In this document: positions 50,208 through 58,100 of the stretch, piece by piece
How positions within the stretch are numbered: position 1 is the stretch's first letter
Layout: every line of letters begins with the position of its first letter
Assembly (NCBI RefSeq): GCF_011745625.1
Contig: NW_027191456.1
Location: forward strand, 248,001-312,000
Reading direction: 5' to 3'
Origin: Cladosporium halotolerans
Taxonomy: Eukaryota
Length of the DNA stretch: 64,000 nucleotides
The notes under the pieces: generated by a model
Seen by the model: only the letters and a program-made list of their open reading frames with translations
Told to the model about the DNA's origin: nothing
Databases searched by the model: none
Program-made: the position numbers and the translations under genes

Positions 50208-53200
50208 ATGGCCGCCGCCTTTGCCCACGCCGGCAATCACCTCGTTGGCGATTCTGTTTCGGCCATTAACGACGGCGACGATCTGTCAACCCTCGATGCT
50301 GGCGAGAGCGCCCTGGACAACGAATATGGACGCGGAAATCTGAACGGAGGCCCACGGCGCAGGCGCGTGGGTGACGATGACGAGACCGATCTTGGATTTG
50401 ACGATGATGATGCTGAGAGCCTCGCGAGCCATGCTGTGAATGGAGCGAACGGAGGAGCTGGTCAGCAGCCGGAGGAAGAGGAGGTTGAATTGCCGCCGCA
50501 CGCTTGTGCGTACTGTGGCATCCACAACCCGAGCAGCGTGGTCAAGTGCTTGTCTTGCAACAAATGGTTTTGCTCAGCCCGTGGCAACACTAGCTCGAGC
50601 CACATCATCAACCATCTTGTCCGCGCTAGGCACAAGGAGGTGCAGCTTCACCCGACTTCTCAGCTGGGAGAGACCACGCTTGAATGCTACAACTGCGGTA
50701 CAAAGAATGTCTTCTTGCTTGGTTTCATTCCCGCGAAGAGCGACACTGTTGTTGTGCTGCTTTGCCGTCAGCCTTGTGCCGCGATGCCGAGCAGCAAGGA
50801 CATGAACTGGGACACTTCTCGCTGGCAGCCGTTGATTGAGGATCGCTCCTTTTTGCCTTGGCTGGTTAGCGCGCCGACGGATCAGGAGCAGATGCGCGCC
50901 AGGCACTTGCCGCCTCAGGTGATCGCCAAATTGGAGGAGATGTGGAAGGACAACAGCAACGCAACAATTCAGGATCTGGAGAAGAACTCAGGGATTGATG
51001 ACGAGCCTGCGCCGGTATTGCTGCGCTACGACGATGCCTACCAGTACCAGAACGTCTTTGGTCCTCTCGTGAAGATCGAAGCGGATTACGACCGGAAGCT
51101 CAAGGAGTCTCAGTCTCAGGACAATCTGATTGTGCGCTGGGACTTTGGACTGAACAACAAGCATCTCGCCTCTTTCGTTCTCCCGAAGTTGGAGCTCGGC
51201 GATGTGAAGCTTGCAGTCGGTGATGAGATGCGTCTCCGCTACCAGGGGGAGCTGCGTCCGCACTGGGAAGGTGTAGGCTACGTGATCAAGATTCCCAACA
51301 ACCAGAGCGACGAAGTCAGCATTGAGCTGAGGGCGCGTGGTGATCACAAGAGCGTTCCGACTGAATGCACGCACAACTTCACCGCCGACTATGTCTGGAA
51401 GGCCACCTCTTTTGATCGCATGCAGCACGCCATGAAGACCTTTGCTATCGACGAGATGAGTGTCTCTGGCTACATCTTCCACCGTCTCCTTGGCCACGAA
51501 GTCGCCGCCGCGCCGATGAAGACGCAGATGCCTCGCAAATTTAGCGTCCCGGGTCTCCCTGAGCTCAACGGCTCCCAAATCAACGCTGTCAAGAGCGTCT
51601 TACAGAAGCCGCTGAGTTTGATCCAAGGGCCTCCTGGTACTGGCAAGACCGTAACCTCTGCGACTATCATCTACCACCTTAGTAAGATCAATGGTGGTCA
51701 GGTTTTGGTTTGCGCACCTTCGAACGTGGCTGTTGATCAGCTCACGGAGCGCATTCATCTTACTGGTCTCAAGGTCGTCCGTGTCACCGCCAAGTCTCGC
51801 GAGGATGTCGAGTCCAAGGTCGGCTTCCTTTCTCTGCACGAGCAGGTTCGCATGAACGACACCAATGTCGAGCTCAACAAGCTCATGCAACTGAAGAGCG
51901 AGCTTGGCGAGCTCAGCAGCCAGGACGAGAAGAAGTTCAAATCACTCACTCGTGCCGCTGAACGTGAGGTTCTGACCAACGCCGATGTCATTTGCTGCAC
52001 TTGCGTCGGTGCCGGTGATCCTCGCCTTGCTAAGCTCAAATTCCGCACGGTCCTGATTGATGAGAGCACGCAGTCTGCTGAGCCAGAGTGTATGATTCCG
52101 CTTGTGCTCGGCTGCAAGCAGGTCGTCCTTGTTGGAGACCACCAGCAGCTTGGTCCTGTCATCATGAACAAGAAGGCTGCCAAGGCTGGTCTGAACCAGT
52201 CCCTTTTCGAGCGTCTTGTCATTCTTGGTTGCGCACCGATCCGTCTGCAAGTGCAATACCGCATGCACCCTTGTCTGTCTGAGTTCCCCAGCAACATGTT
52301 CTACGAAGGTTCTCTGCAGAATGGTATCACCATGCACCAGCGCCTGCGCCGCGATGTCGACTTCCCATGGCCTGTTGTTGACAACCCCATGATGTTCTGG
52401 TCGAACTTGGGATCTGAGGAGATTTCCGCTTCTGGTACCAGTTTCCTGAACAGGACTGAAGCGCAGAATGTTGAGAAGATCGTAACTCGTTTCTTCAAGG
52501 CCGGAGTCAAGCCGGAGGACATCGGTGTTATTACGCCGTACGAGGGCCAGCGCAGCTTTGTCGTCCAGAGCATGCAGCAAAGCGGCACTTTCAGAAAGGA
52601 ATACTACAAGGAGATTGAGGTCGCATCCGTCGACGCCTTCCAGGGTCGTGAGAAGGACTTCATCGTTCTTTCTTGCGTGCGCAGCAACGAGCACCAGGGC
52701 ATTGGGTTCTTGTCTGACCCACGCCGTCTGAACGTCGCCCTCACCCGTGCCAAATACGGTCTTGTCATTCTCGGCAACCCTAAGGTTCTCAGCAAGCATC
52801 CGCTGTGGCACTACCTTTTGTTGCACTTCAAGGAGCGCAACACTCTCGTCGAGGGCCCTCTGAACAACCTGCAGGTCTCTCTACTTCAATTCAGCAGGCC
52901 GAAGACCTCCTACCGTGGCCCTCAGCGCTACCAGATGACCCACCAGACTGCGAACCAAATGGCTGCTCCCTCGAACGGCGGTCGTATGAACGGCGGCCCA
53001 GCACCCCGTGGCGGCGACGGTAGCGTGGTTGGATACATCCCTGACGATGTGAGCTCTGTCCATTCTTCTGCGCTCGGTGGAGGTGCTGCGCTTAACGCCC
53101 AGTACCCGCCGATGTTCCAGGGCTTCCAGGATACGTGGCCTGCGATCTCCGCCAGCCAGCGCAACCTCTCTGGCGGTGCTCCGGGAATGCCGCACCATCA

Positions 53201-53531
53201 CCACCATCACCCGCAGCACCGCGCTCCCGAATCTGTTGCCGGAGATAGTGTGGCCGGAACCGAAGTCACCGACATCACTACCAATGGCTCTTCTAAGCAG
53301 CCGGGCCAAGGTGGTGTGAGCCTTGCTGGCCTCAGCATCAACGATCTCAACAAGCAGGCTTCGCTGTCACAGTCTGACAAGCTTAGACGCTATGTCGAGG
53401 GTCAAGGCGCACCCCAACCGCCAATTGGCAGCGGTAGGGTGAACCGTTCGATGCTGGAGCAGGATGAGGATGCCAGGAGTGTTAGTACTGCTTTCGCAAG
53501 CCAAGTTGGCGGCGTTGGCGGATACGACTGA
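50208..53531 (+). CDS. UPF1: Nonsense-mediated decay RNA helicase Upf1
   Basis: CH domain ([19 protein letters not shown]), [35 protein letters not shown] and RLNVALTRA. Confidence 0.97.
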
Positions 53532-54657
53532 TTGAGAAATGGTCTGATAATGGTTCCAAGGCGCTTTTAGTTCCCGAGATTTTGGGATATGCGTTGAACG
53601 TCCTTTGACACGACTATTTCGCACGCTTACTAGGGACGATGCGACTCCGAAACGAATGCGACGATCATCCGCCAGATGAAACGCGTTCCTGAATCTGTCA
53701 ATCCGTCTGACACTCACGACGAAGACCGTCCAAGGATGAACGCCATACTCATGGATGCCGGGCATCTCGAAAGACCGCCAGTGTCACGCGCGTCATCCCA
53801 GCCTGTCGAGGGAGCTCTTCACGTATCACTTGCATGGAATTGTGGCAGATATCTCGCCGCAGTACTTCTCAGCTGGGCCCAGTCCTCGCAAACATCACAA
53901 CGGCCTACTCAGCACTGTTGTAGTGCGAGTTACGTCAAGTGCCCAGCAAGTCGGGGAACTCAGCCAATTGAGCTCGCCTATGTCAGTGAATGGTAGACAG
54001 AGGTGGATGATCAGACGAGGAAGGGCGCGCTCCGACCGAAAAAAATTGCACTATTTGCTGATTTCTTGATATTACTTTGCTTGCGTTCTGCAAATCGCGA
54101 TAGGCAAGGTTCTATCGTCCCCGATCTTCACTGCAAGAAAGGTGACGGCAGAGCTTGCTGTGTCACTCGCTTGACTTGTTGGTAGCTTCTATAGGGAGGT
54201 ATCAGATTGCTATCTGTTGATATCTCAGACGGCCTCTACTTTGGGGACCGATATCTCGCCATTCGAGCCACGACGACGTTGCAGTATCCGAATGAATAGA
54301 CGCTGGTCGTATATGGCTGCGCGTTTGATGTCAACTGAGGGTTTTGCTAACTGGCCATGATTGCTCTTGTCCGAACAAAGCTTACGCCCGCTGATAGATT
54401 GCTGCAGACTCCGTGACCGCCCGACAGTGTCACTGATCTTTCACGAGAGGCTGCATGAAGATATTGTTTGAAAGAAACGGCTCTGAAAGAAGCCTGGGAC
54501 ACCTCTGGAGCCTTGAGACACATTTCGTCAGAAGGTAGGTCTTTTCGAAGCGAGCCTGCAGCGCCCATGCATGCAGCGCGCGCGCAAACAATGTCTCACA
54601 GCCGTTTGCTCAGCAATTGAAGGCTCATACGGCGTGGAGCAATCGAGATTGTCGTCC

Positions 54658-54664
54658 TATAAAA
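54658..54664 (+). promoter_or_regulatory. Candidate TATA box of the Argonaute gene
   Basis: TATAAAA about 60 nt upstream of ATG 54723. Supported by position only. Confidence 0.4.
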
Positions 54665-54722
54665 CGTCGTCGCGGAATGGAGAGCAGCTTTGCTTACAGA
54701 CCTCTTCCGTCATCAACACACC

Positions 54723-57700
54723 ATGTCAGGATACGGCTATGGATACCAAGGTGGTGGTGGTGGCGGCGGACAACAAGGCCGTCACCAGAGCGGTCGGAAT
54801 CCCGCCAACCCGCCGCAATGTCACACCTGTTGGGGCTTTGGCCATGAACCAAGACATTGTCCAAATCATCAGATGTTCAACGGACCAGATCATCATACTC
54901 GGTGTTTTAATTGCGGCGGACAAGGCCACTCCGGACCAATCTGCATAGCTGCCGCCGGCCAACAACAACCATTTGTGCCGCCCGCCGTCCAAGGGTTTGC
55001 ATACCAACAGCCCCTTCCAGCACCTCAGCAACCTTTTGCGCCATCTCAAGGATACTTGCCAGCATCCCAGCCTCCTTGGGCAGCAAGGACATTTCCAAGT
55101 ACTGGTGCAAATGAGGGCGAACAACTCTCTCAAGGAGGCAACGGAGGCCACATGAGGGATTCAACGAGTTATCCATATCTATCGAACCCCCAGGGGTACG
55201 ATCCTAACGCACCAATCTTCATTCCTGCAACAGGCACCGCCCCAAGTGCTAACAATCGCCCTTGGATCGTCTCCAGTTCCGTCTTGAACACCAGCCACAC
55301 CTCCGAGCAACTCGTTGTTCAAACAGCAGTCAACAATCCATCTGAGAAATCGCAACTTGGCCTCTTGGAATCGCTCCAGAGCAATGGCTTCCGGACTGAT
55401 GTCGCATCCACCGGTGCCAGAAGCACAGTTCTCACCAACTTCTTGAGTATCAAGCAGCGCCCGACCACCCTTTTTGTTTACACCATCGAATTCATCAAAG
55501 GGTTCGATGATCACGAAAAGCCCGTAAGCGTGAAGCACAAGTTCGATAGACAGGGACTGTTTGACTCAATGGTCAACGACACTGCATACGTGCAGCTCCA
55601 GCAAAATGCCCACAAATGGGTGACTGATTTCTACAACATCTGGTCTGCCGTTCCCTTGTTCCACGACATCGACTACACCAGGGTTCCCAACGCCATTCCC
55701 ATCCAAGGTGCTCAGAATCCGAATTCTGGTAAGAGAATATCGAACGTGGAGGTTGCACAGATTATCTTCCATCGCACGATCGACCTGCAAAAGACCATCG
55801 GTCAACTGTACAGCAAAACAACCGGTGGCCTGAAAGGAAACACCGACGCGGCATTGCTTTCCCGCGGGCTAAATGCAATCATCACTCGCCATGCTACAAA
55901 TACAGCACGGCAAGCTAACCCAACCCTGATCCAATCCGGCGCCTATAAGTTCTACCAGACTGCTCGCTCATTCGAACTCGTCACATTTCGCTCGAATATC
56001 GTCAAGGGTCTGCATGGGTTCTTTGTCTCGGTCCGACCTGGCTCACAGCAACTCCTTCTCAACGTCAACCTTCGCTGCTCCCCATTCTTGAAGGGAAAGA
56101 TCAAGGCATGGGATGTCATCAATGCAGTCAACCGCGATTTCAGCCAAGCTTCTGCAATTCTCCGCGGTGTGAAAGTCAGCATACACGCGAGCCAACAACT
56201 AGAGTTCGTGACCAGTGTGGAGAATCGATTCAATGGCCGCAGCGTCAATGTTGGCAAAGACCCACGCAAGCACCCTGGGCGCGAACAATGGGAGTTCCCA
56301 GACAAGCTGCAGACCGCGGAGCTTTCCCCCTATCGGCAGCAATTGAACCCGGTGCAGACAAGCAAAATGATCAAAGAGGCTTTGAAGAGACCCAGCGAAT
56401 ACTGCGAGGATATCATGGGTAATGTGCTCGCAGAGTTGGGCCTCCAGCCTACCTCGACTTTCTCTTCTGATCTGGCGAGAGACTTCGGAATTGTTGTTGA
56501 AAGCAAGCTCTGCAGCGTTCCCTGTCGGTTCTTTTCTGCCCCCAAACTCCAGTATGAGAAGATCCTTGAGCCTCGTGATGGTAAAGGAGACTGGCAGTTG
56601 ACATCTGAAAAGCTGTTCTCCCCATGTCACAAATTGCAGGTGACTGTGTTGGACTTAACAGGATTGGCGGCATACTGGCCCAGGGAATATGTGCAACCGG
56701 CTGAGGATTTTCCGGAGCGGTTCGAAAAAGTCTTCCGAAAAGCCATAGCTTCCTTGGGCATCACACTGAGTTCTTGGAGCTATCCGAATCATCACATCCA
56801 GCAAGATTCAACAGGAAAACTCTCCGAGGACTCCATCTATCAGGTGTTGCAGCGCCAGCAAAGCCTTACGAGCAGCGAAAAGGGTATAGTGGCATTCATT
56901 TTCTTGATACCTCAAAAGGATTATGATCTTTACGCCATGATCAAGCGCGTCGCAGATCTCCGCATGGGAAATAACACCACTTGCCTTGTTGGTAACTCAA
57001 ACGTACTGAAATTTCACTCCAACACTTCACACAGTGTTCAACATTGCGCCAATGTTGGACTGAAGCTCAACCTCAAAGATGAAAGTGGTGTCAATCACTA
57101 TATCGAACGAGCAAAGTTCATCGAGCTCTTCACGCCCTCAGATTACGCCTGCCAATCCGAATGCGACACTATCGTCATCGGCGCGGATGTCACTCATCCC
57201 GTTGGCCACTGTGCCCCTGGCTGTCCATCGATCGCCGCTGTGGTGGGAAGTGTCGATGACAACTTCGCGACATTTCCCGGGTCGATGCGCCTCCAGCGCG
57301 GGAGACAGGAAGTCATCGCGAACCTGGCTGACATGGTTAAGGAGCGTCTGATAGACTGGGCGGGCAAGCATGAGGGGCGGCTTCCCGGTATGATGCTTTT
57401 TTACCGCGACGGTGTTGGTGAAAACCAGTTCGAAACCGTCCGTGAGAAAGAAATTTCCCAGGTGCAGCAGGCTTATGACATGGCTTACAAATATCTCAAC
57501 AAGGAGAGCTATGCTACTGGACCTGGGAAGAAGGAGAGCCTGTACCCATTCAAGGTGACTTTCATCATCGTCGGAAAACGGCACAACACTCGTTTCTTCC
57601 CTCAATCATTGAAGGACAGCATCCCCAATGGGAACGTGAAGCCTGGCTTGGTCGTCGACCAGGTCATTACGCATCCATACATCACCGACTTTTACCTAAT

Positions 57701-58100
57701 GTCGCATGCAGCGATCCAGGGTACTGGCAAGCCAGCTCACTACTTCGTCCTCAAGAACGGCATGGCGCTCAGCTCTGACCGCCTTCAGGAAATCACTCAC
57801 GCCTTCTGCTACAACTACGCCCGCGCTACCAGGAGTGTCTCGTACTGTGCCCCGGCATACTACGCTGACCGCCTCTGCGATCGTGGCAGAGCTTACATCC
57901 GTGACTGGCTTGTCGGCAGGGTCAATGCTCAGCCACACATGAAGCGCGACAACGAGTCATCAGAGGCGCACCGCGATCGTGTTGCATCTTTCCTCCAAGA
58001 CAGTCCTTACTACAACCACCACACAGCTTTGCAGAAGTACGGCCAGCCGCGTAAGAACCCGTGGCACCCAGATCTTGACAACAAGATGTTCTACTTGTGA
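54723..58100 (+). CDS. Divergent Argonaute (QDE-2-like) with two N-terminal CCHC zinc knuckles
   Basis: L1 GFFVSVRP..LLLNVN, MID YAMIKRVAD..NVGLKLNLK, and PIWI IGADVTHP, PSIAAVVGS, FYRDGVGE, VGKRHNTRFFP, GTGKPAHY, VSYCAPAYYADRLCDR. Intronless, 1125 aa. Confidence 0.93.
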   Translation: MSGYGYGYQGGGGGGGQQGRHQSGRNPANPPQCHTCWGFGHEPRHCPNHQMFNGPDHHTRCFNCGGQGHSGPICIAAAGQQQPFVPPAVQGFAYQQPLPAPQQPFAPSQGYLPASQPPWAARTFPSTGANEGEQLSQGGNGGHMRDSTSYPYLSNPQGYDPNAPIFIPATGTAPSANNRPWIVSSSVLNTSHTSEQLVVQTAVNNPSEKSQLGLLESLQSNGFRTDVASTGARSTVLTNFLSIKQRPTTLFVYTIEFIKGFDDHEKPVSVKHKFDRQGLFDSMVNDTAYVQLQQNAHKWVTDFYNIWSAVPLFHDIDYTRVPNAIPIQGAQNPNSGKRISNVEVAQIIFHRTIDLQKTIGQLYSKTTGGLKGNTDAALLSRGLNAIITRHATNTARQANPTLIQSGAYKFYQTARSFELVTFRSNIVKGLHGFFVSVRPGSQQLLLNVNLRCSPFLKGKIKAWDVINAVNRDFSQASAILRGVKVSIHASQQLEFVTSVENRFNGRSVNVGKDPRKHPGREQWEFPDKLQTAELSPYRQQLNPVQTSKMIKEALKRPSEYCEDIMGNVLAELGLQPTSTFSSDLARDFGIVVESKLCSVPCRFFSAPKLQYEKILEPRDGKGDWQLTSEKLFSPCHKLQVTVLDLTGLAAYWPREYVQPAEDFPERFEKVFRKAIASLGITLSSWSYPNHHIQQDSTGKLSEDSIYQVLQRQQSLTSSEKGIVAFIFLIPQKDYDLYAMIKRVADLRMGNNTTCLVGNSNVLKFHSNTSHSVQHCANVGLKLNLKDESGVNHYIERAKFIELFTPSDYACQSECDTIVIGADVTHPVGHCAPGCPSIAAVVGSVDDNFATFPGSMRLQRGRQEVIANLADMVKERLIDWAGKHEGRLPGMMLFYRDGVGENQFETVREKEISQVQQAYDMAYKYLNKESYATGPGKKESLYPFKVTFIIVGKRHNTRFFPQSLKDSIPNGNVKPGLVVDQVITHPYITDFYLMSHAAIQGTGKPAHYFVLKNGMALSSDRLQEITHAFCYNYARATRSVSYCAPAYYADRLCDRGRAYIRDWLVGRVNAQPHMKRDNESSEAHRDRVASFLQDSPYYNHHTALQKYGQPRKNPWHPDLDNKMFYL

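Follow-up and report, generated by a model that had tools for sequence, protein, structure and literature searches.

The 64,000-nucleotide stretch of Cladosporium halotolerans DNA analysed here (the window) carries an Argonaute gene whose front end encodes two CCHC zinc knuckles. Our view, which we hold to be probable rather than secure, is that this gene specifies an AGO-clade, slicer-competent Argonaute that would begin at Met1 and present a flexible leader of ~215 residues (a Gly/Tyr tract, the two CCHC knuckles and a Gln/Pro linker), that this leader marks a diversifying clade of the Dothideomycetes, and that the knuckles may bind zinc and grip RNA, conceivably in some defence role. Accounts of Argonaute N-terminal extensions usually speak of low-complexity or RGG tails, and the knuckle-Argonaute is best thought of as a variation on a known kind of Argonaute, not as a new system.

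The gene occupies 54723-58100 on the + strand, where a single uninterrupted open reading frame (ORF) of 1125 codons plus stop, opening with the ATG at 54723, forms a complete single-exon coding sequence; its product, P0001 in our protein set, has the N-terminus MSGYGYGYQGGGGGGG. An earlier, sequence-only reading of this DNA had placed two C-X2-C-X4-H-X4-C knuckles in the same frame as an Argonaute core, and it was right to the nucleotide: knuckle 1 is CHTCWGFGHEPRHC (residues 33-46, nucleotides 54819-54860) and knuckle 2 is CFNCGGQGHSGPIC (residues 61-74, nucleotides 54903-54944), both are exact matches to that spacing, and the frame stays open from one end of the gene to the other. The Gly/Tyr start and the Q/P-rich linker that it described are there too, the former as a low-complexity tract at residues 3-18 (54729-54776, +; predicted disordered, with a predicted local distance difference test score, pLDDT, of ~30) and the latter as a disordered stretch at residues 79-130 (54957-55112, +), with pLDDT <50 at residues 79-103 and 108-181. 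Across the first 250 residues the fractions of Gly, Gln and Pro are 0.13, 0.10 and 0.11, and RG dipeptides number 0. There are six cysteines in residues 1-143, every one of them a knuckle ligand, and all eight ligand residues of the two knuckles are intact. Gly stands at position 8, just before the His, in both knuckles, and knuckle 2 has a further Gly at position 5, so that it reads C-X2-C-G-X2-G-H-X4-C.

Chance is a poor explanation for this pair, because none of 20,000 shuffles gave two motifs, whether the whole protein was shuffled (at least one strict motif in 6) or only its N-terminal 143 residues (a strict motif in 4). In the six-frame translation of the entire 64-kb window, these two knuckles are the only strict motifs. 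Knuckle 1 shares 9 of its 14 residues with the first knuckle of a two-knuckle relative (metagenome locus L011), while the lone knuckle of other relatives lines up with knuckle 2. A recent internal duplication was considered as the origin of the pair and rejected; beyond the ligands and one Gly, the two copies have hardly anything in common. A comparison of the leader with Pfam at E values as high as 10 brought up nothing but weak zinc-knuckle families; no retrotransposon Gag domain or other family appeared, and a recent Gag capture therefore has nothing to speak for it. In an AlphaFold2 model built from 62 relatives, residues 1-181 are predicted to be disordered save for a local rise in confidence at knuckle 2 (pLDDT 68).

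Behind the leader lies a conventional Argonaute. The structured N-L1-PAZ-L2-MID-PIWI core spans residues 220-1125 (55380-58097, +) by AlphaFold2 and structural alignment, and the Pfam Piwi domain (PF02171) matches residues 725-1059 (56895-57899, +) at 6e-62, with a bit score of 210 (cut-off 28.9). The rest of the core is fainter to sequence profiles: Pfam finds ArgoL1, ArgoL2 falls below threshold, and PAZ, ArgoN and ArgoMid were not detected in the Pfam sequence search. The model is confident after residue 181 (mean pLDDT 80.2; predicted template modelling score, pTM, 0.81), its residues 220-1125 superpose on residues 24-859 of human Argonaute2 (745 of 800 residues aligned, root-mean-square deviation 2.8, Z 41.8), and the Foldseek match of the core has an E value of 1e-57. 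We take every Argonaute lobe to be present, PAZ included, the last being too divergent for Pfam, because the model superposes across this whole span of the human protein; the fold thus bears out the N-L1-PAZ-MID-PIWI core that the earlier reading had named from sequence.

By similarity scores, the protein belongs with the AGO rather than the PIWI clade. Its nearest solved proteins are human AGO1-4, AtAGO10, QDE-2 and the yeast Argonaute KpAGO (E 1e-42 to 1e-53), whereas PIWI-clade proteins score far more weakly (1e-15 to 1e-19). The DEDH tetrad comprises D822, E863, D896 and H995, which align with the human Argonaute-3 motifs GADVTHP, RQE, YRDGV and SHA. Since these residues are intact and conserved (among 140 relatives D822 is invariant, and E863, D896 and H995 are each at least 90% conserved), the enzyme should, judging by its residues, be able to slice. 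Conservation is equally high (invariant or >=90%) at Y737, K741 and K781 and, in the C-terminal MFYL, at M1122 and F1123; Y737, K741 and K781 we take to belong to the 5'-phosphate pocket of the MID domain, an assumption drawn from the alignment to human Argonaute-3 and the human numbering.

The knuckle is by no means a quirk of this one gene. In a set of 111 full-length proteins (>=850 residues, mostly representatives from an exhaustive search), a CCHC-type motif stands within the first 350 residues of 58 (strict in 21, near-strict in 9 and longer-looped in 28), and when named proteins are added the figure becomes 94 of 175 (30, 11 and 53), although the rows so counted are mutually related and include some near-duplicates from duplicated genomes, so that these fractions describe the data set and not independent events. 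Outside the first 350 residues such a motif occurs in just 1 of the 175 proteins, and shuffled N-termini average 0.84. The 37 strict knuckles of the family have Gly at position 8 in 29 cases and at position 5 in 11. Automatic annotation picks up few of them: among 27 strict-knuckle relatives, Pfam zf-CCHC scores above its cut-off in 7, just below it in 4 and goes unreported in 16, and UniProt has given the automatic name 'CCHC-type domain-containing protein' to two relatives.

The earlier reading had made much depend on whether the knuckle cysteines are kept in orthologues, and kept they are. C61, C64 and C74, together with H69, are invariant in an alignment (A3) of 10 relatives picked for having a knuckle; homologues at 34-50% identity carry a knuckle at the same place; and a CCHC-type knuckle is present in 6 of the 8 rows of the nearest clade (once with X5 spacing), the two remaining rows being a truncated model and one that starts differently. 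Metagenome DNA tells the same story, with the motif in the open frame of the core, right after an ATG, at 9 of 19 loci examined (19 of 37, the remaining loci lacking upstream sequence). Two of these nine, L001 and L002, are positional orthologues beside UPF1, and L011 has two strict knuckles with RG repeats between them.

The longer-loop paralogues deserve a description of their own. In P0050, P0044, P0048, P0020, P0128 and ~50 others (alignment A4) the N-terminus reads M-x7-C-x-R-C-x9-H-x4-C, followed by LWxxF, another Cys and TKxxLExA, and AlphaFold folds residues 1-91 of P0050 confidently as a small domain (pLDDT 73-93) ahead of a disordered linker. To judge from the model, this is possibly an undescribed zinc-binding domain of Argonautes.

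Where, then, does the knuckle-Argonaute sit in the family? We made a quick IQ-TREE phylogeny from the C-terminal 720 residues (545 columns) of 61 rows picked by hand and rooted it on two basidiomycete Argonautes. It separates 8 ascomycete rows with RG-rich tails and a CCHC motif in 0 of 8 (support 96 by the Shimodaira-Hasegawa-like approximate likelihood-ratio test, SH-aLRT) from 51 rows that include P0001, 35 of them with the motif (SH-aLRT 99), and a FastTree of 111 rows agrees with this split. The smaller clade is QDE-2-like, in that P0118, one of its rows, reaches 258 bits against the QDE-2 structure 2yhb, where P0001 reaches 173 bits (E 7e-50, residues 716-1097). P0001, without an RGG-type tail and inside the 51-row clade, therefore falls outside the QDE-2 orthologue group, which is the outcome of the comparison with QDE-2 that the earlier reading had proposed. 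None of the database names of the relatives mentions SMS-2. The earlier reading's notion of a specialised Argonaute clade with a module of its own survives in part: the clade is distinct, and the module, found in over half of the 175 relatives, is not peculiar to this gene. On these trees, the knuckle leader appears to characterise a large Argonaute clade that is diversifying fast and has the RGG-tailed, QDE-2-like Argonautes as its sister group.

Most of the named members in which the N-terminal CCHC-type motif occurs are Dothideomycetes, and two are Candelina species (Candelariomycetes). They include Friedmanniomyces, Hortaea, Elasticomyces, Recurvomyces and Vermiconidia among the Teratosphaeriaceae and other Mycosphaerellales, Cladosporium and Rachicladosporium among the Cladosporiales, and some Pleosporales and Botryosphaeriales. 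Single assemblies of Friedmanniomyces endolithicus, Hortaea werneckii, Elasticomyces elasticus and Vermiconidia calcicola hold several paralogues of the clade, and in V. calcicola LTR37 two paralogues both have strict knuckles, a pattern suggestive of lineage-specific expansion in these black fungi. A homologue search started from P0111 returned P0111 itself and two grass Argonautes, and nothing more.

What might the knuckles do? We picture each of them binding one zinc ion and contacting single-stranded RNA, with the disordered linker tethering the pair to the core, so that the silencing complex would be able to hold RNA or RNA granules in a second way, independent of the guide, and targets or precursors would become locally more concentrated. 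RGG tails give the Argonautes of the sister clade a grip on RNA, and the knuckles would be a parallel to these RGG boxes and to the G-rich/CCHC tails of Vasa/GLH helicases. We favour zinc and single-stranded RNA as ligands because the spacing is classical, the Gly-His signature is present, Gly/Tyr or RG tracts lie alongside, and the enzyme acts on RNA.

The strongest competitor to this idea accepts that the knuckles are translated and supposes that they serve a zinc-dependent contact with protein or with DNA and chromatin, or act as a regulatory or degradation signal, instead of capturing RNA. It draws on the longer-loop variant (C-x-R-C ... H ... C) of so many paralogues, which in P0050 sits within a folded domain of ~90 residues that resembles a docking domain more closely than it does a nucleocapsid-type knuckle, and on the rarity of an aromatic residue at position 2, found in only 10 of the 37 strict knuckles. 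Yet both knuckles of the window gene are classically spaced with Gly before His, G/Y-rich or RG-rich tracts adjoin the knuckles not only here but also in L011 and P0021, a zinc knuckle beside such a tract is typical of RNA-binding tails, and the attached enzyme works on RNA; on this evidence we consider a role away from RNA unlikely.

There are, of course, observations that weigh against our favoured reading. The Pfam zf-CCHC profile (PF00098), which is only 18 positions long, scores the leader at 12.7 bits against a cut-off of 20.8 (best stretch residues 61-72), and AlphaFold2 confidence at knuckle 1 is low. The motif is missing from 81 of the 175 relatives, the knuckles of L007, L012 (first copy), P0158, P0171 and P0176 have decayed, and that of P0004 has a one-residue insertion. 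Closer to home, relatives at ~95% identity show a cluster of nonsynonymous changes around knuckle 2 (H58R, T59I, F62L, Q67R, S70P, P72T and A76P), and in a relative at ~86% identity the knuckle-2 region cannot be aligned; these DNA comparisons are with contigs of relatives and cover the differences listed for them. The missing, decayed and altered knuckles could be read as the mark of a relic, an ancestral module that now has little function and is drifting out of this lineage. However, the window gene has kept all its ligands and has no other cysteine in the leader, the ligand codons are untouched among the differences listed for the ~95% relatives while their neighbours change (the probability of their being spared by chance is ~0.1), the leader of the L001 group is better conserved than the N-PAZ lobe (see below), and part of the absence of the motif stems from truncated gene models. 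We therefore rate a relic as decidedly improbable.

The remaining objection concerns where translation starts. The database gene model for the same DNA, P0002 (982 residues, 100% identical), begins at Met144 (55152-55154, +) and so omits both knuckles. We think that this model is wrong, and that the true start is predicted to be Met1 at 54723. The ATG at 54723 has an A at -3, whereas that of Met144 has a C, and an in-frame stop lies 60 nucleotides upstream of 54723. In the ~86%-identical relative the indels listed upstream of 54723 measure 1, 9, 2, 1, 1, 1, 4, 2, 1 and 1 nucleotides, only the 9 being divisible by three, and the first ones downstream are of 3 nucleotides and then a replacement of 134 by 131; among those listed, indel lengths switch to multiples of three at 54723. 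The relatives P0013 and P0193 open in the same manner, with 'MSG' and a Gly/Tyr tract ('MSG(Y/F/H)...GYGG') followed by a knuckle. The same database has also clipped another relative: P0167 is the ORF of L011 (L011:218-3871, +) from residue 87 onwards, downstream of both knuckles, though the frame ahead of it is open. It is the ATG context, the switch in indel lengths, the starts of P0013 and P0193, the knuckle at the same place in the nearest clade and the clipping of P0167 that, taken together, make us doubt the Met144 model. Since automatic models clip open-frame leaders in this way (at Met144 in the window and in P0167), knuckle-bearing Argonautes are under-counted in databases.

A second ORF, of 125 codons, runs across 54571-54948 (+) in frame +1 relative to the Argonaute; it overlaps the knuckle region and its codon-usage score is slightly better. 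This alternative frame is broken in a relative by indels of -2, -1 and +1 nucleotides, and it looks like a by-product of low-complexity sequence. A 1-nucleotide deletion listed at 55187, near a contig end, does count against the leader as part of the protein. That translation begins at Met144 after all, with 54723-55151 a 5' leader open by accident and the knuckles not in the protein, is the weakest of the alternatives and in our view highly improbable: it can point to P0002, to the equally knuckle-less model of an 87% relative (P0003), to the disorder predicted for the leader and to codon-usage log-likelihoods that are uninformative by frame in the low-complexity leader and fail to favour the knuckle frame, but it runs up against the shuffles that exclude a chance origin of two exact knuckles, the knuckle at the same place in distant homologues and in uninterrupted metagenome ORFs, the indel pattern at 54723, the broken alternative frame and the like clipping of P0167.

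The setting of the gene was unexpected. Directly upstream, at 50208-53531 (+), lies UPF1, the RNA helicase of nonsense-mediated decay (UPF1_Zn_bind 1e-75, AAA_11/AAA_12), and L001 and L002 have the same gene order as the window: an upstream gene, UPF1, the Argonaute and a downstream membrane-protein gene. Relative to the window, amino-acid identity at these two loci is 97% for the upstream gene, 97% for UPF1 and 59-79% for the membrane-protein gene, and merely 37-38% for the Argonautes (L001:5629-9024 and L002:5602-8937, each compared with P0001). When L001 and L002 are compared with each other, amino-acid identity is 99.8% in UPF1, 95% in a downstream exon and 62% in the Argonaute, and nucleotide identity is 86-91% in the flanks and 67-78% within the Argonaute gene. 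For this pair, synonymous divergence (dS) amounts to 0.31 in UPF1 and to 0.30 in the knuckle-bearing codons 1-60 of the Argonaute, against 1.8-2.3 in its codons 231-700. It is on account of these values that we describe the Argonaute core as an island that diverged long ago within an otherwise conserved locus, with a knuckle leader that tracks the flanks. P0169 and L001 form a mosaic pair of the same kind, 95% identical over residues 1-60 and 53% over residues 231-700, and the leader is thus constrained in these relatives.

As far as sequence comparison goes, this pattern is compatible with a gene under conflict-type selection, without amounting to proof of a defence role; it lends no more than indirect support to the RNA capture and the antiviral or anti-transposon function that the earlier reading had suggested. 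A bolder extension would make the N-terminal CCHC module the ancestral signature of an Argonaute superfamily, spread over the Dothideomycetes and certain lichen fungi and engaged in genetic conflict, in which the knuckle might capture foreign single-stranded RNA, from a mycovirus or transposon, independently of any guide, while the N-PAZ lobe, which handles guide and target, would persist as old and strongly divergent haplotypes, maintained by balancing selection or by recurrent introgression. We offer this only tentatively, and think it clearly less likely to be right than wrong. Something comparable is on record for Zymoseptoria tritici, a member of the same fungal class: the main text of the study that deals with its Ago1-Ago4 (Habig et al. 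2021, PMC8303167) speaks of 'highly distinct alleles' for Ago1, Ago3 and Ago4 and suggests introgression, and these alleles resemble the divergence island at the UPF1-Argonaute locus. Zinc and N-terminal features have 0 occurrences in that main text. In our own data, the 35-row clade that contains P0001 also takes in a protein of Z. brevis (P0031).

Other known systems resemble the window gene at one end or the other. At the enzyme end, QDE-2, the quelling Argonaute of Neurospora crassa (the 2yhb structure is its MID-PIWI lobe), is like P0001 a fungal AGO-clade protein with a PIWI domain and DEDH residues; unlike it, QDE-2 belongs with a clade of RG-rich tails and no CCHC motif, where P0001 has knuckles and no RG tail. 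Human Argonaute1-4 share with P0001 the fold across all lobes, the catalytic tetrad and a hydrophobic ending to the C-terminal tail, and differ from it in sequence (~23-27% identity), in having no zinc knuckle and a short N-terminal extension, and in the PAZ domain, which in P0001 is invisible to Pfam. At the knuckle end, the same units occur in RNA-handling proteins such as CNBP/Gis2, Lin28, Air1/2 and retroviral nucleocapsid. In Vasa/GLH helicases, C-X2-C-X4-H-X4-C knuckles often lie beside Gly- or RG-rich tracts on a flexible tail, according to the relevant passages of PMC8191739. In none of these knuckle proteins, from Vasa/GLH to nucleocapsid, is there a PIWI fusion, and the likeness to P0001 seen here is one of motif.

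Has any of this been described before? The earlier reading had allowed that the architecture might prove both common and already described. Common it is, as the counts above make clear, with automatic Pfam or UniProt flags in a few members. As to description, our full-text literature searches found no paper on a CCHC-Argonaute fusion, and databases show automatic labels only. Two apparent precedents fell away when looked at, because 'zinc knuckle' refers to Vasa where it appears in PMC8191739 and belongs to separate Pfam enrichment lists in PMC4556806, and neither PMC6620828 nor PMC6572790 gives a clade assignment for this Argonaute family.

The knuckle-Argonaute clade of black and rock-dwelling fungi is large, fast-evolving and so far undescribed. 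A zinc knuckle built into the protein, if it is truly there, would be a different route by which to couple a slicer to RNA. The module recurs in dozens of paralogues, in stress-tolerant black fungi and in plant pathogens, where RNA interference has barely been studied, and automatic gene models are apt to clip it off, as they have in the window gene and in P0167. The combination of a knuckle module with a divergent Argonaute at a conserved locus furnishes a concrete system in which to ask about a virus or transposon arms race in fungal Argonautes.

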